NCBI GenBank assembly: GCA_023136205.1
Contig: JAGLRQ010000134.1
Coordinates: 1-9,884 of the forward strand
Source: Candidatus Auribacterota bacterium
GTDB taxonomy: Bacteria; Auribacterota; UBA6266
Reading direction: 5' to 3'
Length of the DNA: 9,884 nt
Positions 2,264-9,884 of the stretch are shown here, one piece after another. The position numbers and the translations under genes are program-made. The stretch's first letter is position 1; each line of letters begins with the position of its first letter. Below the pieces are notes generated by a model, which was not told the DNA's origin, searched no databases, and saw nothing but the letters and a program-made list of their open reading frames with translations.

Positions 2264-3766
2264 ATGAAATCAAAAACTTTTATTTTTATTATAATAATTA
2301 ATTTTGTATTTTTAACAGGGTGTGCCCAAAAAAGAACCGATTACAAAACACTGTATTTACGCCTGCCTGAGCAACCGTCGACGCTTGATCCAGCCCTTAC
2401 AGTAGATGTTTATTCCGGAGGGATACTTTCTAAAATCTATTCCACCCTTGTGAAATTTGATGAAAATCTCGCGATTCTTCCCGATGCAGCGGAAAAATGG
2501 GCAGTTTCCCGGGATGGCAGGAACTACGTTTTTTATATTGATGAAAATTTAAGGTTTAGTGATGGAACATCTGTTACTTCGCGTGATGTCAAAAAGTCTT
2601 TCCAGAGAATACTGTCTCCTGGTTCCCTCTCATCGAGAAAATGGATGTTTGAGAATGTCAGGGGAGCAGTAGCTTTTATGGACGGGAGGGAAAAGGATGT
2701 AAGCGGGTTTAAAATTATTGGTGAAAAAACCTTAGGGATAGAATTGATAAAACCTTTTGCCCCTTTTTTAGGCCTTCTTGCTATGCCTAATGCCGCTATT
2801 GTAAAAGAAGGCGTCAATAGTCTTCTGGGGTCGGGGGCTTTTAAACTGGAAAAATGGAAAAGAGGAGAGAAAATACTGCTGTCAAAAAACAGGGAGTATT
2901 TAAAGGGAAACTCTTTTCTTGAGAACATATGCTATCGTATTATACCTCAGGATTTTACAGCGCTTTCTGAATTCAAACAGGGGAATTTGGATATTTTGGG
3001 GCTTTCTAATTCTATGGTTGATTCTTTTAAAGCTGTCGAATACGAAAAAAATGTTTACTCCAAAATAGGGCTTAATATTTATTACATAGGCTTTAATTGT
3101 CAAAGAGAGCCTTTCAATAATATTGCTGTAAGGCGGGCTCTTGTTTCAACAATTGATAAAGAAAGAATAGTAAATACAATCCTTGCCTCGAGGGCTGAAC
3201 CGGCGTTTTCTCCTGTTCCTCCCGTTCTTCTGGATGTGGAGCATTATGAAGTAGATAAAGATGTGGTGTTTCCGAAGGAAAGGGTTCTTAAACTACTTAT
3301 AAATACTAGCGATGAAATGCAGGCAATCGCGGAGGTATGCCAGCATTTCTGGAAGGAAAAAGATGTTAAAGTTGATATTATTCAGAGAGAGTGGAATGGT
3401 TTTAAAGAAGCTTTAAATAACGGCGAATTTGATATGTTTATTCTTTCGTGGTGGGCGGATTATCCTGATGCCGAAAATTTTTTATATCCCGTGTTTTATT
3501 CCGGCAACTGGGGCTCAAAGGGAAACAGAGCCAGGTACTCAAACAAAAATTTTGATAAAATTATTTTAGAGGCTCGCTCAGAGCTGGATTTGAACAAAAG
3601 AGAAAATTTATACAGACAGGCTGTGAAAATTGTTGTAAGAGACTGTCCTTGGGCTTTTCTTTGGCATAAAAAGGATTATTCTGTTATTCAACCGTGGGTA
3701 GTAAATTTTAAAATTTATCCATTGTATTATTCTGACAAGGGTGTGGATGTAAAGCTGGAGTACTAG
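2264..3766 (+). CDS. ABC transporter substrate-binding lipoprotein, family 5 (peptide/nickel, DppA/OppA-like)
   Basis: 500-aa ORF with a signal peptide and lipobox (FVFLTGC, Cys20). Family-5 SBP-like features: STLDPALT near the N-terminus, YYIGFNC, SWWADYPDAENFLYPVF. It is followed directly by two permease genes. Confidence 0.85.
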   Translation: MKSKTFIFIIIINFVFLTGCAQKRTDYKTLYLRLPEQPSTLDPALTVDVYSGGILSKIYSTLVKFDENLAILPDAAEKWAVSRDGRNYVFYIDENLRFSDGTSVTSRDVKKSFQRILSPGSLSSRKWMFENVRGAVAFMDGREKDVSGFKIIGEKTLGIELIKPFAPFLGLLAMPNAAIVKEGVNSLLGSGAFKLEKWKRGEKILLSKNREYLKGNSFLENICYRIIPQDFTALSEFKQGNLDILGLSNSMVDSFKAVEYEKNVYSKIGLNIYYIGFNCQREPFNNIAVRRALVSTIDKERIVNTILASRAEPAFSPVPPVLLDVEHYEVDKDVVFPKERVLKLLINTSDEMQAIAEVCQHFWKEKDVKVDIIQREWNGFKEALNNGEFDMFILSWWADYPDAENFLYPVFYSGNWGSKGNRARYSNKNFDKIILEARSELDLNKRENLYRQAVKIVVRDCPWAFLWHKKDYSVIQPWVVNFKIYPLYYSDKGVDVKLEY

Positions 3767-4701
3767 TGAATAAACAAAAAGTCTTTGTGATAAAAAGATG
3801 TCTTCTTGCCATACCCACCATAATTGGTGTTGTAGTCCTTATTTTTGTTCTTACGCGGTTTGTTCCTGGAGACCCTGTTAATAGTTTTGTCGGTAGAAGA
3901 GCTGATGCCCGAATAATTGAAAAGGTAAGAGAAGAATTCGGACTTGATAAACCTTTTTTTGTGCAGTTCTTTTATTATGTTAAATCTCTTGCCAGGGGCG
4001 ATATGGGATATTCCTATGTATCGGGACAGCCGGTGAGTAGTATGATTGCTAAAAGATTCCCGAATACACTCAAACTTGCCTGTACAGCTATGGTACTTGC
4101 GGTTTTGTCAGGGATTGCCATGGGCTTTTTATCTGTTCTAAAACCCGGAGGCTTTATTGATAGAGCCTGTATGTTTCTTTCTGTTTCAGGAATATCAATT
4201 CCGGTTTTCTGGTTTGGACTCATACTTATAATTGTTTTTTCAAATATGCTCGGATGGTTTCCGGCCTCAGGGATGGGGGGCCCCTCTTATATTATTCTTC
4301 CCGCCCTGACACTCGCGACGCGCTCTTCCGCTTATATAGCTAGGATAACCAGATCCAGTGTTTTAGAAGTCCTTGGGGAAAATTTTGTTGTTACCGCAAG
4401 GGCAAAAGGATTAAGCCGGACAAAAGTTTTAATGAAGCACGTTCTTAAAAATGCGCTTATTCCTGTAGTAACCTTAATAGGAATTGATCTTGGGAGTTAC
4501 CTGAACGGTTCTGTGCTGACAGAATCTATTTTTGGTTGGAATGGCATAGGCAATCTTGCTTTAAATGGAATAATGAACAGGGATTACCCTGTAATAATGG
4601 GGACGGTTCTTTTTGGATCGGTAATTTTTATTTTCGCTAATATTCTCGTGGATGTTTCATATTCGATTTTCAATCCGAGGATAAGCTATGAGAGAAAATA
4701 A
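3766..4701 (+). CDS. ABC transporter permease, DppB/OppB-type
   Basis: The GTG start overlaps the SBP stop by 1 nt (TAGTG), with GGAG (3757-3760) 5 nt upstream. The N-terminus RCLLAIPTIIGVVVLIFVLTRFVPGDP and the EAA-type loop TARAKGLSRTKVLMKHVLKNALIP are typical of this permease class. Multiple TM helices. Confidence 0.88.
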   Translation: MNKQKVFVIKRCLLAIPTIIGVVVLIFVLTRFVPGDPVNSFVGRRADARIIEKVREEFGLDKPFFVQFFYYVKSLARGDMGYSYVSGQPVSSMIAKRFPNTLKLACTAMVLAVLSGIAMGFLSVLKPGGFIDRACMFLSVSGISIPVFWFGLILIIVFSNMLGWFPASGMGGPSYIILPALTLATRSSAYIARITRSSVLEVLGENFVVTARAKGLSRTKVLMKHVLKNALIPVVTLIGIDLGSYLNGSVLTESIFGWNGIGNLALNGIMNRDYPVIMGTVLFGSVIFIFANILVDVSYSIFNPRISYERK

Positions 4702-4752
4702 TTACGAAAAAACTAATTCTATCTGTGTCACCAAAACAGGTTTTTAGCTCTT

Positions 4753-5568
4753 ATGAATATAATTAAACAGCACAAATCAGTTAAAATTATAGCAGGCATA
4801 CTTGCTGCCATATTTTTATCCGCGGCATTTGCTCCTTTGATTACCCCGCATGATCCTGTTCACATCAACCTTGATGATGTGAAACAGCCTCCCTCTTTGA
4901 AATACCCTTTTGGAACTGATACAAAAGGGAGATGTGTTTTTAGCAGGGTTGTTTATGGCGCAAGGGTGTCTCTTCTTGTAGGACTTACAGCAACAGTCTG
5001 TGCTTTTTTCTTTGGAGTATTTTTGGGGTCTGTTGCCGGATATTTCGGGGGATTAATTGATAAAATAGTAACTTTTCTTGTTGATATTACCCTTTCTGTT
5101 CCAGGCCTTCTCCTGGCAATTGCTATAACGGTGGTATTTGAACCTGGCATTGTTACGGTGCTTATAGCATTGTGTACTATAGGCTGGGCAAGTTTTGCCC
5201 GTCTTGCCCGCTCAAGCATCATATCCATAAAAGAAAAAGATTTTGTAGTGTCGGCGATTGCGATGGGCAGTTCAAGAAGGAGGGTCCTGATAAGGCACCT
5301 TATACCCAATATAATTCCCCTGATGCTTGTCGCGGCAACTCTCAGGATTGGAGGATTTATCCTCGGGGAAGCTTCATTGTCTTTTCTCGGACTGGGTGTG
5401 CGTCCGCCCCAACCTACATGGGGAGGGATGATTTCTTCAAGTGTAAACTATATCCAGTCTGCCCCCTGGATAGCAATATTTCCGGGTGTTGCTATTGCAA
5501 TTACGATTTTGTGCTTTAATTTGCTGGGGGATATTGTGAGAGACTATTGTGACCCTAAGATGAAGTAA
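4753..5568 (+). CDS. ABC transporter permease, DppC/OppC-type
   Basis: N-terminal AAFAPLITPHDP and the EAA-type loop SAIAMGSSRRRVLIRHLIPNIIP are typical of the second permease of Dpp/Opp-type importers. Multiple TM helices. Confidence 0.88.
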   Translation: MNIIKQHKSVKIIAGILAAIFLSAAFAPLITPHDPVHINLDDVKQPPSLKYPFGTDTKGRCVFSRVVYGARVSLLVGLTATVCAFFFGVFLGSVAGYFGGLIDKIVTFLVDITLSVPGLLLAIAITVVFEPGIVTVLIALCTIGWASFARLARSSIISIKEKDFVVSAIAMGSSRRRVLIRHLIPNIIPLMLVAATLRIGGFILGEASLSFLGLGVRPPQPTWGGMISSSVNYIQSAPWIAIFPGVAIAITILCFNLLGDIVRDYCDPKMK

Positions 5569-5653
5569 AAAGCCGGAAATGCCCGCATCTGCGGCGTTAT
5601 TGCTCCCTCAGAAATCCTCGATGTACTATAAAGTACGCCTGCGTCATTCTTCG

Positions 5654-5692
5654 GTCGCAATGCCTTGCATATACAGGCATTTGCGGCTTTTT
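5654..5692 (+). terminator. Rho-independent terminator candidate for the deacylase/ABC cluster
   Basis: The stem GGTCGCAATGCCT (5654-5665) pairs with AGGCATT(T)GCGGC (5675-5687). That is about 12 bp with one bulged T and one G-U pair. The loop is 9 nt (TGCATATAC) and is followed immediately by TTTTT (5688-5692), with a second TTTTT at 5696-5700. Confidence 0.6.
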
Positions 5693-5848
5693 GGATTTTT
5701 CTGGGATAACACTTTTTTGCAATCTCTGCATCACAAACCCGATACATCCCAAGCACATACAACATCACTTTACTACAGCTAACATCAGTTATCACCACAC
5801 ATAAAGTAACGTTTTTTGCTCGATTATGTGGTGGCGCTAAAGAAAATG

Positions 5849-5896
5849 GGGAAAGTCCCAAGCAAGCGAAGCGAGCGCGTGGACTGTCCCTTTTTT
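5849..5896. terminator. Hairpin plus T-run; possible bidirectional terminator
   Basis: GGGAAAGTCC (5849-5858) pairs with GGACTGTCCC (5881-5890), 10 bp with one A/G mismatch. TTTTTT (5891-5896) follows on the plus strand and ATTTTCT follows on the minus strand. The 22-nt loop is unusually large, which lowers confidence. Confidence 0.4.
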
Positions 5897-5901
5897 CTTG
5901 A

Positions 5902-6120
5902 ACGGAGTTAACACTATATGGACCTTTAGTATTTATAAGCTCTTATATCCAAAACCAAGTTAGAATACTCCACGAAACTGAAAAGGCTGTTTTGGTTGAA
6001 AATGTAGAAAAGATCTGGATTCCAAAATCCCAAATACAAAAGATAAGGTTGGGGAATAATATTTTTGAGGTTTATGTTAGAAAAGGGATGTTTAGGTGGT
6101 GGGATAGTGTGTCGCTGTAA
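5902..6120 (+). pseudogene. Degenerate or frameshifted small ORF with a phage/plasmid-like small-protein motif
   Basis: The frame is open for 72 codons after TGA 5899-5901 and ends at TAA 6118-6120: TELTLYGPLVFISSYIQNQVRILHETEKAVLVENVEKIWIPKSQIQKIRLGNNIFEVYVRKGMFRWWDSVSL. It has no canonical start apart from TTG 5992 and a late ATG. An ATG at 5918, with GGAG (5904-5907) 10 nt upstream, is out of frame by one base and stops after 3 codons (ATG GAC CTT TAG). That pattern fits a frameshifted gene or a sequencing error. Confidence 0.35.
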
Positions 6121-6134
6121 CTTTTAAAATGGCC

Positions 6135-6365
6135 CTATATTTTTTTTGCAAATTTTTTCTTTGCTTCTCTCCTGACTATGTTAAGCTCCTTCTTGAGACG
6201 ATTAACTTGTTCCTCGATTTCTCCCTCACAACAACAGTCTGGTGTTAAAAATATGTTGCCCTCTTTATCTCTTGTATGAGTCTTTACATAAATTTTCGCA
6301 GCATTGCAATCAAGAAGCGCGCCTTTTGAAGGTTTATGAAACATTAACTCGATTGAATAGGTCAT
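6135..6365 (-). CDS. Small hypothetical protein (76 aa) with a CCC triplet and a basic helical tail
   Basis: A consensus SD precedes the start: complement of 6371-6376 is AGGAGG, 5 nt upstream of the ATG (complement of 6363-6365). The composition looks protein-like: a predicted beta-rich N-terminal half, then EGEIEEQVNRLKKELNIVRREAKKKFAKKI (amphipathic, basic helix). Cysteines are C20 and C44-C45-C46 (complement of 6228-6236). Confidence 0.7.
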   Translation of the reverse strand: MTYSIELMFHKPSKGALLDCNAAKIYVKTHTRDKEGNIFLTPDCCCEGEIEEQVNRLKKELNIVRREAKKKFAKKI

Positions 6366-6707
6366 TGTTACCTCCTAATTTTATGTTCGTATAAGTTCTC
6401 ACCAAAAATTCACAGCTTCACTTTTTTATAACTAATTTTCGAACCAAGCAATAAAAAAGGCCCTAAGTTTACAGAACATACTCCTGTAAAATCAGCGCCT
6501 ATCGCCGGCATCCTGATTAAAAATAGTTTATCCACCAAAAAACTAAAGAAATTATTGCACATAAATTTCTTTTTGTCAATAGGAGTTTTTATTTTTTTCG
6601 ACGACAAAATCCTATAATTATTCATTCGTTATGAAAAAAAGTACCAATAATTCTAATACAATATAAGCTCTTAACGGGATTCAACTTACAATTTTTTAGA
6701 GCGTTAT

Positions 6708-6736
6708 CTGAAAAATTATCATAAGCAATCTATAAT
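6708..6736 (+). promoter_or_regulatory. Sigma-70-like promoter candidate for the 6850 gene
   Basis: CTGAAA (6708-6713, 4/6 match to TTGACA), a 17-nt spacer, then a perfect TATAAT (6731-6736). It lies about 115 nt upstream of ATG 6850. This is a pattern match only, in AT-rich DNA. Confidence 0.3.
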
Positions 6737-6849
6737 GAGAAAGGGGCGCAAGCTTATGGGTTGGGTTTCGAGGAAAGTCGCTGGTGATAAAAGCTGTTGA
6801 AGAAAACCCCAGATTATTTTATCATGAATAAAAATCGAGGGTAGCTCCG

Positions 6850-7950
6850 ATGTCAGAAGAAAAAAACAACGTCAAAGTACTTTTTTCCATTAAAAAAATA
6901 TGTAACTATCTGTTCATCCTTATTGATTGGGTTATAGAAAAGCGCAAATTTTTCTTTATCCTCATCTCAATTCTATTTTTAATTCTGTCCTATATGTTTG
7001 TACTTCAATATTCCTATTCTAATAGAAGCTTGGGTTTTCTATTTGCAACTTTATTACCTATTATATACCTTTTTTATTTTGCAATCAAAAAAGAAAGAGC
7101 AATATCAAGTGTAGAAGGGGTTCTTATACTTTTTTTAACAATTTTAATAGGGGTTGGACCCACATATCTAAAAGGAGAAACTAAAGCTTGGAACGAGCTA
7201 ATAAAAAGTAAAATTAAACGGATGAGTGAAGGAGGCGCTGGGAAAAAAGGTATTTATGGTATTTTTGACACAGATTCTGCGGCAACACCAGGGATTATGG
7301 TGGGAACAATCACCCCAAAGATAGACAAAGAAGCAGACTCTAAAACTAATATAGAAATAACAGAAAGTGTTATACAGTCAATAGTATTACAGGAAGCAAC
7401 AAACAATCTTATTAGAAACGGCAATTTTCAAATTCCTTTAGCGAATAACTTAAGTCACTGGGGTCATGGATACTACTCGGATAGAATAAGGAAACAATAT
7501 CCGGAAACTAGTATAATTTGGATTAATTTTTTAAACGCAGGCATAAATATTTCAAGAGAAGAAACAGAAATTGGAAATGCTCTTAAAATAGTCCGTAAAT
7601 CTCCAAGGGAAGACCATGTAGTTGGAATAATGGAACAATCCATAAAAGTTGTCCCAGGGGAATACAATCTTTCATTTATGGCAAAGGCAAAAGATTTAGA
7701 AGAACGTGCCTTACAAATTCGCACAACAAATGACTGGAGAAGAACTCAGACAAATGGATATGTAAGAGGATATGATTTTGAAGCAACCGGAACTTTTGGA
7801 TGGCAGTCTTTCTTTGAAAATCTCACAATTGCTGAATCTGGAGAGATAACTTTCACCATAGTATCTACGGGAAAAGGAACTTTATATTTAAGAGATATCT
7901 CTCTTATTAAAATTTCTGACCTAGTTGTAGAAAACGATAGTTCAGAATAA
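6850..7950 (+). CDS. Membrane-anchored protein with a C-terminal CBM_4_9-like / galactose-binding-like beta-sandwich domain
   Basis: GAGGG lies 8-12 nt upstream of the ATG. Three to four hydrophobic helices fall within aa 34-105 (FFFILISILFLILSYMFVL, LGFLFATLLPIIYLFYFAI, VEGVLILFLTILIGVGPTYL). A linker follows, then, from aa 185 (nt 7402), NLIRNGNFQIPL..LSHWG...VVPGEYNLSFMAKA...GWQSFFENLTI...GTLYLRDISLI. That is the N-x-hydrophobic-x-NG-x-F ... W ... G-x-Y-x-hydrophobic-S-F ... hydrophobic-x-hydrophobic-D-D/x-hydrophobic-S-hydrophobic pattern I associate with CBM4/9-type jelly rolls. Confidence 0.65.
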   Translation: MSEEKNNVKVLFSIKKICNYLFILIDWVIEKRKFFFILISILFLILSYMFVLQYSYSNRSLGFLFATLLPIIYLFYFAIKKERAISSVEGVLILFLTILIGVGPTYLKGETKAWNELIKSKIKRMSEGGAGKKGIYGIFDTDSAATPGIMVGTITPKIDKEADSKTNIEITESVIQSIVLQEATNNLIRNGNFQIPLANNLSHWGHGYYSDRIRKQYPETSIIWINFLNAGINISREETEIGNALKIVRKSPREDHVVGIMEQSIKVVPGEYNLSFMAKAKDLEERALQIRTTNDWRRTQTNGYVRGYDFEATGTFGWQSFFENLTIAESGEITFTIVSTGKGTLYLRDISLIKISDLVVENDSSE

Positions 7951-7971
7951 TAAAAATGGTCTCAATATACC

Positions 7972-7995
7972 GAAAAGGGGTCTGGCCCCCTTTTC
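7972..7995. terminator. Short A-tract/T-tract hairpin; weak, possibly bidirectional terminator or attenuator
   Basis: GAAAAGGGG (7972-7980) pairs perfectly with CCCCTTTTC (7987-7995) across a 6-nt loop (TCTGGC). The GC core is only 4 bp and the U-run lies within the 3-prime arm, so some read-through into 8028 is likely. Confidence 0.45.
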
Positions 7996-8027
7996 CTAAA
8001 AGTTAAAATTCGGGAGCTATTTTAATA

Positions 8028-8837
8028 ATGGAAAAGCCCAAGTTAGATATAATTGGTGATTGGTCAGAATATAAACTGCAAATTTTGAAGAAGTATGCAG
8101 AAGCTTACGTTAAAATTGTTAAATCACGCTTTAAGTATATATATATAGATGCGTTTGCGGGTGCTGGGATGCATATATCAAAGACAACGGGAGATATTGT
8201 GTCGGGTAGCCCTCTAAATGCGCTGAATATTGAATTTCCGTTCGATGAATATCATTTTATTGATTTGGATGGAGTTAAAGTAGAACTATTGAAAGATTTA
8301 AGCAAAGATAAGTCTAGTGTGTATATTTATCAAGGTGATTGTAATGAGATTTTACTGGATAAAGTATTTCCAAGAGTAAAATATGAAGATTATCGGAGGG
8401 GTTTGTGCCTGCTAGACCCTTATGGGTTACACTTAAATTGGAGCGTTATAAAAAAAGCTGGTGAGATGAAGTCAGTAGAAATATTTTTAAACTTTCCAAT
8501 TATGGATATAAATATGAATGCGATAAAACGGAATCCTGAGAAAGTTACTTCTGAGCAGGCTATGAGAATGACTAGATATTGGGGAGATGAAAGTTGGAAA
8601 GATGTTGCGTATTCTAGCAATGGAATGCTTTTTGAAGATATGAAGGGGAAAACGGATAATGAGACATTGGCAGAGGCTTTTAGAAAGAGATTGATCAATG
8701 ATGCAGGATTTAAAATTGTCCCTAAGCCAATTGCGCTGAAAAACACAACAGGTGCTACCCTATATTATTTGTATTTTGCATCACAGGCTAATGTCGCAGG
8801 TAAAATTGTTGGAGACATTTTTAAAAGTCACAATTAA
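8028..8837 (+). CDS. tcmP: TcmP-like protein (three-Cys-motif partner protein family) with a Rossmann-fold methyltransferase-like motif order
   Basis: The N-terminus DWSEYKLQILKKYAEAYVKIV...YIYIDAFAGAGMH......SGSPLNAL matches my memory of the TcmP family signature (W..K...L..Y...... hydrophobic-YIDxFAGxG ... GSPhydrophobic-xAL). The family is defined by its pairing with a three-Cys protein, and such a protein follows here. MTase-like motifs appear in order: motif I DAFAGAG (from nt 8148), an acidic strand end HFIDLD, GDCNEIL, and a motif IV-like LLDPYG (D130 at nt 8415). GGGAG lies 12 nt upstream of the ATG. Confidence 0.7.
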   Translation: MEKPKLDIIGDWSEYKLQILKKYAEAYVKIVKSRFKYIYIDAFAGAGMHISKTTGDIVSGSPLNALNIEFPFDEYHFIDLDGVKVELLKDLSKDKSSVYIYQGDCNEILLDKVFPRVKYEDYRRGLCLLDPYGLHLNWSVIKKAGEMKSVEIFLNFPIMDINMNAIKRNPEKVTSEQAMRMTRYWGDESWKDVAYSSNGMLFEDMKGKTDNETLAEAFRKRLINDAGFKIVPKPIALKNTTGATLYYLYFASQANVAGKIVGDIFKSHN

Positions 8838-9671
8838 ATGACAATGAAAACCATAGCAAAAAATAATTTTGATAATAGTAAAACAAATTGTGTTTTTGGT
8901 ACATACGAATGGGCTAATGAAACAGTTAATATTATAGATGGCTGTAAGCATGATTGTAAATATTGCTATAGCAAAGCAATGGCAATTAGATTTAAGAGAA
9001 AAACACCTGCAAATTGGAAAGAAGAAAAAATCAGGAATAATGGTTCGTTAAACTATTCAAAAAAGGTTGATGGAACTATAATGTTTCCGTCTTCTCATGA
9101 TATTCATCCGGAGCATTTGAGTTATCATATAGATTTTATTGAGAGATTATTAGAGCACGGAAACAGGCTTTTAATAGTTACAAAACCTCATTTTGATTCT
9201 ATAAAAACAATTTGTGAGCAATTTATTGATTATAGAGACAAAATCCTATTTCGATTTACTATTGGCTCTATCAATTCAGATATACTGAAATTTTGGGAGC
9301 CAGGAGCTCCTGATTTCAATGAGAGATTAAAGGTTTTAAAATATGCATTCAATAAAAACTTTCAAACCAGTGTTTCTTGTGAGCCAATGCTGGATAATAA
9401 CATAGTGGGTGTTATTGATGCTGTTTATCCTTTTATTACGGATTCAATATGGTTGGGAAAAGCGAATTATCTAATTAAGAGATTAAAATTTAATAAAGCG
9501 GACGATCATTTAACAATGAAAAAAGCATTGCAATTATTAAATTGGCAGTCAGATGATAATATCCAAGATTTATATGATATATATAAAGATGATGCTAAGA
9601 TCAAGTGGAAAGAAAGTATAAAAAGTATTGTGGGAATAAAAATACCTATTCAAAGCGGATTAGACATATAA
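8838..9671 (+). CDS. Small radical SAM enzyme (three-Cys partner; DUF5131/Gp37-Gp68-like N-terminus, SplB/COG1533-like core)
   Basis: The ATG abuts the tcmP stop (TAAATG at 8835-8840), indicating translational coupling. A canonical CX3CX2C motif, GCKHDCKYCY (Cys36/40/43), lies at nt 8943-8966. Downstream elements resemble photolyase-like radical SAM cores: LLIVTKP, FRFTIGSINSDILKFWEPGAPDFNERLKVLKYAF, TSVSCEPML. An alternative start is Met3 (8844). Confidence 0.75.
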   Translation: MTMKTIAKNNFDNSKTNCVFGTYEWANETVNIIDGCKHDCKYCYSKAMAIRFKRKTPANWKEEKIRNNGSLNYSKKVDGTIMFPSSHDIHPEHLSYHIDFIERLLEHGNRLLIVTKPHFDSIKTICEQFIDYRDKILFRFTIGSINSDILKFWEPGAPDFNERLKVLKYAFNKNFQTSVSCEPMLDNNIVGVIDAVYPFITDSIWLGKANYLIKRLKFNKADDHLTMKKALQLLNWQSDDNIQDLYDIYKDDAKIKWKESIKSIVGIKIPIQSGLDI

Positions 9672-9779
9672 AGACCATTTTCAATATATTGCTTTTAAAA
9701 GATTGGATATCTAATGCCAGTCTGAATTAAGTGCGTTAGTCAGTAAAAGTATTTACGATTCTATTTCGGGAAAGATTTT

Positions 9780-9884
9780 TTAAACCGTTTTATCCAAAGA
9801 TTTATCATTCTGCAAATATAGTGTCTGTGAAGGAAACGCAAACTCTATACTTTCTTTTTCAAAAGACTCTTTTATTTGGAAGTT
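9780..9884 (-). CDS. C-terminal fragment of a mechanosensitive (MscS-family) channel-like protein; the rest lies beyond the window end
   Basis: My minus-strand translation from 9884 gives NFQIKESFEKESIEFAFPSQTLYLQNDKSLDKTV, ending at a stop (complement of 9780-9782). The pattern (E/K)xxI(E)hydrophobic-xFPxQThydrophobic-xhydrophobic resembles the conserved MscS C-terminal GIEIPFPQR-hydrophobic-V-x-hydrophobic segment. Only 34 codons are visible. Confidence 0.45.
   Translation of the reverse strand, partial: NFQIKESFEKESIEFAFPSQTLYLQNDKSLDKTV

Follow-up and report, generated by a model that had tools for sequence, protein, structure and literature searches.

Near the end of a 9,884-nucleotide (nt) contig of Candidatus Auribacterota bacterium (JAGLRQ010000134.1, assembly GCA_023136205.1; this whole stretch is hereafter called the window) lie two adjoining genes, one for TcmP (a three-Cys-motif partner protein) and the other for a radical S-adenosylmethionine (SAM) protein. 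An earlier note, written from the sequence alone, had drawn attention to the two open reading frames (ORFs), and both are confirmed on the plus strand at 8028..8837 and 8838..9671 (Table 1). Profile searches, structure models, and comparison with related loci lead us to regard the pair, tentatively, as a mobile DNA-modification cassette composed of a methyltransferase and a DNA-directed radical enzyme.

Table 1. Features of the tcmP–radical SAM locus in window coordinates.
Feature	Position	Strand	Remarks
tcmP (ORF1)	8028..8837	+	269 amino acids (aa); three-Cys-motif partner protein, predicted RlmJ-like class I SAM-methyltransferase fold
Radical SAM gene (ORF2)	8838..9671	+	277 aa, or 275 aa from 8844; spore photoproduct lyase (SPL)-like, probable sister to DUF5131
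Gene junction TAA-ATG-ACA-ATG	8835..8846	+	tcmP stop, then radical SAM candidate starts 8838 and 8844
Shine-Dalgarno-like GGGAG	8012..8016	+	11 nt 5' of the tcmP ATG; read from sequence
Lys16, N-terminal helix of TcmP	8073..8075	+	candidate equivalent of RlmJ motif-X Lys18
TcmP motif I, SAM-binding loop D41-A-F-A-G-A-G47	8148..8168	+	D41, F43, G45, G47 invariant
TcmP motif IV D130-P-Y-G133	8415..8426	+	D130, P131, G133 invariant; aligned with RlmJ D164-P-P-Y
[4Fe-4S]/SAM cluster motif C36-x3-C40-x2-C43 (GCKHDCKYCY)	8943..8966	+	invariant in 30 homologues
P84-S-S-H-D-I89 motif	9087..9104	+	aligned with SPL H-atom-donor Cys140 segment (C140S, C140A mutant chains)
F138-R-F-T-I-G-S144 motif	9249..9269	+	common to SPL (FRFSINS); then common 'EPG...RL' segment
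S180-C181-E182-P183 motif	9375..9386	+	Cys nearly invariant
Terminator-like hairpin GGGGTCTGGCCCC + T-run	7977..7999 (hairpin 7977-7989)	+	between upstream 366-aa gene and tcmP
Imperfect inverted repeat, left arm, 22 nt	7947..7968	.	82% complementary; brackets two-gene cassette
Imperfect inverted repeat, right arm, 22 nt	9666..9687	.	overlaps radical SAM stop codon

The two genes are organized as a compact unit. In both the ORF listing and the sequence, the tcmP stop codon (TAA, 8835-8837) abuts an ATG at 8838, and the letters thus agree with the stop-to-start TAAATG fusion described in the note; however, because public gene calls for the identical radical SAM protein begin at the second ATG (8844, giving 275 aa), where the alignment of most homologues also starts, the literal fusion may really be a 6-nt gap. 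Either way, spacing is tight across homologous pairs: it is 0 nt in locus L088 and -4 nt in L089, and most of 42 pairs fall between -32 and +21 nt. Sequence inspection found no Shine-Dalgarno-like site comparable to GGGAG ahead of the radical SAM start, and because such a site precedes tcmP only, the arrangement fits translational coupling of the two genes. A terminator-like hairpin, the sole such site within 5500-9884, parts tcmP from the upstream 366-aa gene, which suggests that the pair forms its own transcription unit. The AT-rich context reported earlier is borne out: guanine-plus-cytosine (GC) content is 0.30-0.35 over 6250-9750, covering the cassette and its upstream neighbour, vs 0.38-0.47 in the ABC-transporter genes further upstream.

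The product of tcmP belongs to the TcmP family, as the note had proposed. It scores 189.9 bits against TIGR04474 (cut-off 53), with residues 11-268 covering profile positions 1-262 of 263, and matches the PADLOC models PDC-M41A (230.8 bits) and PDC-M30A (29.7 bits); it has no Pfam or PHROG family. TIGR04474 itself we take, from its TIGRFAM description, to be defined by genomic pairing with an adjacent three-Cys-motif (PF07505) gene. The AlphaFold model of TcmP (pLDDT 91.6) has a class I methyltransferase fold, and its top 14 Foldseek matches in the PDB are all RlmJ or the Legionella homologue LPL1258 (2oo3), with a best E-value of 6.7e-8, a TM-score of ~0.54, and a sequence identity of 12-16%. 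Single-sequence searches of solved structures returned no match for either TcmP or the radical SAM protein. A profile of 29 TcmPs did align with Escherichia coli RlmJ in hhalign (probability 86%, E 4.7e-6), pairing TcmP 'GSPLNAL' with RlmJ 'GSPLIAR' and TcmP 'RRGLCLLDP-YGLH' with RlmJ 'RRGLILIDPPYEMK'. By fold and by profile, TcmP is a remote homologue of this N6-methyladenine (m6A) methyltransferase, which lends substance to the methyltransferase-like character first noticed in its motif order.

Key residues of the predicted active site can be matched as well. In motif I, TcmP YIDAFAGAG pairs with RlmJ YLDTHAGAG in a low-probability local alignment, to which the invariance of the motif adds support. 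Motif IV of TcmP, DPYG, corresponds to the (D/N)PP(Y/F) motif of N6-adenine methyltransferases shortened by one residue, with the Asp aligned and one Pro missing. Because hhalign places the two together, Asp130 of TcmP, the invariant residue that the note had singled out, corresponds to the catalytic Asp164 of RlmJ, whose substitution (D164A) abolishes activity (PMC3814359). The catalytic motif-X residue of RlmJ is Lys18, and its active site resembles those of DNA m6A methyltransferases (PMC3814359). TcmP Lys16, invariant in family alignments and at least 90% conserved even in a mixed TcmP set, is the likely counterpart of Lys18, an equivalence proposed independently of any alignment. The two proteins have in common a Rossmann methyltransferase fold with an N-terminal helix, and the D-x-x-A-G-A-G of motif I, the GSPL segment, and the Asp of motif IV recur at matching positions in both. 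Unlike RlmJ, however, TcmP is not a housekeeping protein and always occurs with a radical SAM-type partner; together with the low identity and the missing Pro, these features set it apart, and its sporadic distribution argues against RlmJ orthology.

The radical SAM assignment of the second gene also held. The protein exceeds the gathering threshold of PF04055 (Radical_SAM; 36.2 vs 29.5 bits, residues 30-177) and would bind a [4Fe-4S] cluster through the Cys residues of its canonical CX3CX2C motif (C36/C40/C43). The top 37 Foldseek matches of its model (pLDDT 86.8) all have the radical SAM fold, including SkfB, SPL, LipA, and SuiB. Among solved structures, the DNA-acting enzyme SPL (SplB, COG1533 'DNA repair photolyase') gives the best TM-score (0.51), and it is the sole match at E <= 0.1 when the family profile is compared with all PDB sequences (best E 0.008). 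SPL and ORF2 have in common a CX3CX2C motif near the N-terminus, followed in the same order by S-x-D-I, FRF-x-I-x-S, and EPG...RL segments. On the other hand, ORF2 falls far below the SPL models (15.5 vs 27 bits for PF20903 and 17.5 vs 400 bits for TIGR04070), is ~60 residues shorter, and carries Ser85, inside the conserved P-S-S-H-D-I motif, at the position of the SPL Cys140. Moreover, its family occurs in non-sporulating anaerobes and predicted viral contigs and is coupled to methyltransferases. The nearly invariant Cys181 is a candidate radical-quenching or substrate-contact residue.

The note had treated this enzyme as something other than the three-Cys partner of TcmP; it is better described as a DUF5131 homologue with a canonical cluster motif. 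Its direct score against PF07505 (DUF5131) is below threshold (22.6 vs 28.9 bits, residues 24-62 on positions 5-46 of 243), whereas true DUF5131 members score 311-345 bits. The B-component models of PADLOC detect it weakly, over residues 23-105 only (PDC-M41B 24.5 bits, PDC-M30B 21.1 bits), and its scores with all NCBIfam and PADLOC models stay well short of their cut-offs. In hhalign, however, the N-terminal 'EW...N...GC...C..CY...A.R' block of ORF2 aligns with that of the DUF5131 protein that partners TcmP in Nitrospira japonica, a 3-residue gap being required because the cluster spacing is CX3CX2C in ORF2 vs CX6CX2C in the Nitrospira protein. An iterated DUF5131 hidden Markov model (HMM) takes in the entire ORF2 family, and RadicalSAM.org places DUF5131 in megacluster 5-2, adjoining SPL in 5-3 (PMC9477430). 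Because of the aligned block, the uptake by the iterated HMM, and the megacluster neighbourhood, ORF2 is most simply seen as the canonical-motif sister of the three-Cys partner rather than an unrelated addition. The window pair resembles the known pairing of TcmP with DUF5131 ('phage Gp37/Gp68') in its full-length, high-scoring TcmP, in the adjoining same-strand gene of the DUF5131 superfamily, and in being a small, mobile, sporadic cassette. It differs in a partner that lies below the PF07505 cut-off, passes PF04055, has the shorter cluster spacing, is closer to SPL over the core, and is barely detected by the PADLOC B models.

The pairing extends beyond the genome in which it was noticed. 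An adjacent, same-strand TcmP-family gene is present at 42 or more of the 80 best radical SAM genome loci, a lower bound in that the narrow TcmP HMM missed divergent forms; a 387-aa neighbour at L048, for example, went undetected and has the same GMT-type winged helix-turn-helix (wHTH) tail as PDC-M30A-type TcmPs. Among 52 candidate neighbour ORFs of the radical SAM family, 42 match TIGR04474 and 15 strongly match PDC-M30A. TcmP is usually encoded upstream of the radical SAM gene, and in four loci downstream as a ~390-aa form. TcmP-like proteins of ~390 aa with a C-terminal GMT-like wHTH (PF22560) are found at L025 (6782-7954) and L048 (4801-5961), and also at L028, L035, and L049. Pairing is concentrated in the members nearest to the window radical SAM protein, more distant members being without TcmP. 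Conversely, a DUF5131-superfamily gene adjoins TcmP at every TcmP locus examined, namely in Nitrospira, on seven IMG/VR contigs, in Synechococcus and Gordonia phages (convergent orientation), and on a Leisingera plasmid. Thus, TcmP depends on a DUF5131-superfamily partner, while the partner is not dependent on TcmP.

Within this arrangement, partners are exchanged freely between the two families. The closest relative of ORF2, at L008, is 85% identical to it, yet the accompanying TcmP, a 302-aa protein with a Cys-rich N-terminus, is only 23% identical to ORF1. The window TcmP belongs to the canonical clade, whose members of 46-58% identity pair with DUF5131; a canonical TcmP with an ORF2-type partner is seen in the window and otherwise only at L088 (72%) and L089 (66%). 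Distances within the TcmP and radical SAM families are correlated (Mantel r = 0.32, p <= 0.0005). At L008 (= L007), a 70-aa HTH_3 (XRE-type) gene at 587-799 overlaps the start of the TcmP-like gene and resembles a restriction-modification controller. No comparable small ORF lies beside the other 41 pairs, and a conserved helix-turn-helix (HTH) controller gene was rejected as a component of the system, being confined to L007/L008.

Clues to the substrate come from proteins in which a radical SAM domain, matching the window-family HMM along almost all of its length at 200-350 bits, is fused to other domains. At L061, in a Lentisphaerae metagenome-assembled genome (MAG; MHBM01000019.1), a 625-aa protein (3217-5091) joins a D12 (Dam-type) N6-adenine DNA methyltransferase to the radical SAM domain, and a second D12 methyltransferase gene (5091-5927) follows directly. 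N6_N4 DNA methyltransferases are fused to it in P0265 and P0280, and other fusion partners include AAA+/DNA-polymerase-III-delta'/RuvB/MgsA-type (clamp-loader-type) ATPases, a DnaG zinc ribbon, and a ParB-like domain. Three unrelated amino-methyltransferase families, TcmP, D12, and N6_N4, are tied to this radical SAM enzyme by adjacency or fusion; these links, together with the fused DNA-metabolism domains, are our chief reason for proposing that the substrate is DNA and that the coupled reaction is amino-methylation. The nucleic-acid chemistry suggested in the note gains support here, both from these fusions to DNA methyltransferase and replication domains and from the link to SPL. Inteins (Intein_splicing, LAGLIDADG_3) split the radical SAM domain of P0246, P0264, P0276, P0289, P0320, and P0323 just past CX3CX2C (model positions ~48-60). 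On the IMG/VR contig L142, a radical SAM member (5001-6257) has a C-terminal extension with a weak match to ASCH, a domain whose fold group reads modified bases (E 0.0014, under the cut-off).

Both families are widespread and sporadic. The radical SAM family comprises 2,023 matches at 90% clustering, and of 1.84 billion representatives at 50% clustering, 856 belong to it at E <= 1e-30; TcmP has more than 7,685 matches. When 185,579 species genomes were scanned by pattern, the radical SAM family appeared at 191 places (~0.1%). Hosts are mostly uncultured anaerobes (Cloacimonadota, Bacteroidales, Ignavibacteria, and Syntrophaceae), together with one Aenigmatarchaeota archaeal MAG. Because no INPHARED phage genome contains the radical SAM family at E <= 1e-3, whereas IMG/VR contigs do carry it, the term 'phage-encoded' rests for this family on predicted viral contigs. 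In PLSDB, TcmP is found on 15 plasmids, nine of them conjugative, none of which carries the radical SAM family of ORF2. The surroundings of the pair are unrelated from genome to genome: it follows smpB at L088, sits inside a glycine-cleavage/lipoate cluster at L089, and in Nitrospira lies between a peptidase gene and a Leu/Phe-tRNA-protein transferase gene. These settings and the low GC content point to a horizontally mobile cassette.

Defence-related genes recur around relatives of the pair. When the two closest genes on either flank were examined at 40 paired loci, they included type I restriction-modification M/S/R, AbiLi, AAA_21/AAA_15, ResIII, SWI2/SNF2, and Schlafen-AlbA_2 genes; the pair on the Leisingera plasmid adjoins two Abi genes; and PADLOC lists the pair type as the candidates PDC-M41/M30. 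In Sinorhizobium meliloti, TcmP is in one putative transcription unit with the defence gene hna (PMC12445080). Loci without TcmP have resolvases, integrases, DnaB, primase, DEAD helicases, recombinase, C5 methyltransferases, and HNH proteins as neighbours. In Gordonia phage BaxterFox (L093; KU963263.1), the TcmP-like gp42 comes directly after the immunity repressor gp43, and a 337-aa ORF on the minus strand (3963-4973), convergent to gp42, scores 270 bits with the DUF5131 HMM. As this ORF overlaps three opposite-strand 'hypothetical' genes (gp39-41), the deposited annotation may be wrong. In two Ignavibacteriaceae MAGs, a 469-477-aa gene of the SPL family (PF20903, E 1e-36 to 6e-41; L081, 4329-5735; L083, 4298-5728) lies ~240 bp upstream of an ORF2-family gene that has no TcmP beside it.

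On this basis, we lean, with slightly less than even confidence, towards an explanation in which the pair is a mobile two-enzyme DNA-modification cassette, probably one that lays down a self-mark in genetic conflict. TcmP would act as an RlmJ/Dam-type SAM-dependent methyltransferase of an exocyclic amino group, adenine N6 being the foremost candidate. Its co-translated partner, the radical SAM protein, would bind its [4Fe-4S] cluster and cleave SAM to a 5'-deoxyadenosyl radical, which could abstract a hydrogen on a flipped-out DNA base at or beside the methyl mark, so that a simple methyl mark is turned into something more elaborate or becomes part of it. As an epigenetic self-mark, the cassette would have its role in conflicts between phage and host or among mobile elements. 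Family membership, folds, conserved catalytic motifs, the obligatory DUF5131-superfamily partner of TcmP, the fusions, and the genomic settings are observed; the choice of DNA over RNA as substrate, the atom attacked, which reaction comes first, and the biological role are our inferences. The phage-host conflict role put forward in the note fits the related loci and the PADLOC candidates, but the window itself contains no phage or defence gene. A more ambitious version, which we consider possible but doubtful, has the SPL-like enzyme carry out radical chemistry on DNA that depends on, or builds upon, N6-methyladenine (or N4-methylcytosine) put in place by the partner methyltransferase. The outcome would be either a novel hypermodified base or a restriction-like immunity in which a 5'-deoxyadenosyl radical takes the place of a nuclease and inactivates foreign DNA that lacks the mark. 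In both cases, the whole DUF5131/three-Cys superfamily, with its many phage copies, would form a clade of DNA-directed radical SAM enzymes that share a reaction.

Several observations weigh against a DNA-modifying self-mark. RlmJ methylates rRNA and has no action on single-stranded DNA (PMC3814359). TcmP is uniform across phyla, with 66% mean column identity and no obviously variable target-recognition domain, which is atypical for sequence-specific DNA methyltransferases; its motif IV is one Pro short, and the aromatic residue of this motif is unconserved in the ~315-aa TcmP subfamily. TcmP is missing from the loci of many radical SAM family members, among them all 44 IMG/VR loci, so that the enzyme is not strictly dependent on this methyltransferase. 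No defence or phage gene is recognisable in the window with Pfam, NCBIfam, PADLOC, or PHROG. Finally, full-text literature searches yielded annotation mentions only, with no experimental function for any member of the pair and no report of an anti-phage assay on PDC-M41 or PDC-M30.

A rival explanation is a restriction-modification-like defence, in which TcmP would protect host DNA by methylation and the radical SAM effector, standing in for a nuclease, would damage unmethylated incoming DNA by abstracting hydrogen, leaving a strand break, base lesion, or crosslink. A tightly coupled module of methyltransferase and partner invites this comparison, as do the candidate-defence status of homologous TcmP/DUF5131 pairs in PADLOC, the restriction-modification and Abi genes adjoining related loci, the unit shared with hna in S. 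meliloti (PMC12445080), and the BaxterFox arrangement of gp42 behind the repressor with its convergent DUF5131-like ORF, a typical prophage-defence spot. The methyltransferase–radical SAM fusions resemble type IIG enzymes, and the HTH_3 gene overlapping the TcmP-like start at L007/L008 looks like a controller. As an analogy, type IIG/IIL fused restriction-modification systems similarly couple or fuse a methyltransferase to a second DNA-acting catalytic domain, and relatives of the window pair similarly lie in defence-island neighbourhoods; unlike those systems, however, the window pair has neither a nuclease nor a variable specificity domain, and its second enzyme is a radical SAM protein. Indeed, neither TcmP nor the radical SAM protein contains a nuclease domain according to Pfam, NCBIfam, and PADLOC, and TcmP lacks the variable specificity regions of restriction-modification methyltransferases. 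The controller-like gene is unconserved at other loci. TcmP-less radical SAM genes are common, with the IMG/VR copies lying in replication modules, although a free-standing toxic effector should not persist without TcmP. In addition, radical SAM enzymes are slow and oxygen-labile. Taken together, a restriction-like effector seems to us unlikely.

The replication setting of the TcmP-less members, whose neighbours include genes for DnaB, primase, helicase, and recombinase, would suit a different proposal, namely that the SPL-like enzyme reverses a lesion or removes an alkyl or methyl adduct anaerobically, with the methyltransferase as an accessory (writer and eraser). SPL is the sole solved relative by profile and has the best TM-score, the Joint Genome Institute labels members of the family 'DNA repair photolyase', a true SPL-family gene adjoins two Ignavibacteria loci, and the hosts are largely anaerobes, in which O2-dependent AlkB-type repair would be unavailable. 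Against this stand Ser85 in place of the H-donor Cys140 and scores far below the SPL thresholds (15.5 vs 27 and 17.5 vs 400 bits). Since repair or mark erasing would also leave the three methyltransferase families, linked by adjacency or fusion, and the defence-island neighbours unexplained, we rate it as quite unlikely. The least probable alternative, and in our judgement a very unlikely one, is RNA modification, with TcmP as an RlmJ-like rRNA or tRNA adenine methyltransferase beside an RNA-acting radical SAM enzyme, in housekeeping or translation reprogramming. The closest solved relative of TcmP is indeed the 23S rRNA m6A2030 methyltransferase RlmJ, the uniformity of TcmP would suit a conserved RNA target, and one viral member has the weak ASCH-like extension. 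Many radical SAM enzymes act on RNA, including RlmN/Cfr and MiaB. Nevertheless, the radical SAM protein has its kinship with SPL rather than with RlmN or MiaB, its domain is found fused to DNA methyltransferases and replication domains instead of RNA-binding ones, the distribution is sporadic (191 places, ~0.1% of genomes) and in unrelated contexts, and the window resembles a horizontally acquired low-GC island.

The remainder of the window offers few further clues. The pair is flanked by a peptide ABC-transporter operon with an uncharacterised membrane protein, and by an MscS channel. The 366-aa protein encoded immediately upstream (6850-7950) has an N-terminal membrane region and low GC content like the cassette; its C-terminus weakly resembles a hyaluronic-acid-binding family, BT4411 (E 5e-4, far under the cut-off). 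It is absent beside the pair at L088, L089, and L091, and the idea of a conserved third gene was therefore rejected. The note had mentioned a degenerate phage-like ORF nearby; the 366-aa and 76-aa neighbours have no PHROG or PADLOC family, however, and their Pfam and NCBIfam matches are all sub-threshold. With no tRNA genes or Rfam matches in the window and no PHROG matches for these neighbours, a phage origin of the window was likewise rejected. A 26-nt inverted repeat (5567-5692; 85% complementary, arms 74 nt apart) starts at the stop codon of the ABC permease, where the higher-GC operon gives way to 1.3 kb of sequence (5570-6850) whose listed ORFs are all of 105 aa or less; the 76-aa ORF, the sole one of these compared with the family libraries, had no match.

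A second, imperfect inverted repeat brackets the cassette itself, with the perfect core AAAATGGTCT/AGACCATTTT. L088 has a 22-nt inverted repeat of different sequence at equivalent flanks, and L089 and L091 have none. By our own estimate, ~10 such 10-mer matches are expected by chance in the AT-rich stretch, and the repeat could be either a chance match of this kind or a trace of cassette mobility. Being absent from L089 and L091 and compatible with chance, terminal inverted repeats were rejected as a mobility signature.

The note's description of the pair as an undescribed system goes too far. The pair type is already catalogued, since the pairing defines TIGR04474 and appears in PADLOC as PDC-M41/M30, and it is routinely annotated by NCBI. 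New here are the CX3CX2C/SPL-like partner subfamily, which is modelled by none of the libraries searched; the finding that TcmP is a homologue of RlmJ-type methyltransferases, whose catalytic Asp it matches in alignment; and the fusion evidence pointing to a DNA substrate. TcmP and its three-Cys partner have been annotated for more than 10 years across bacteria, archaea, plasmids, and phages, with only candidate status in PADLOC. Our analysis proposes a concrete, testable identity for them: an RlmJ/Dam-type amino-methyltransferase acting with an SPL-related, DNA-directed radical SAM enzyme. Methyltransferase and radical SAM enzyme became linked more than once, by adjacency in the case of TcmP and by fusion in the cases of D12 and N6_N4. 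Should the chemistry be borne out, bacterial immunity would gain either a novel DNA modification or a novel effector principle, and a substrate class would be provided for ~850 orphan radical SAM sequence clusters as well as for DUF5131.

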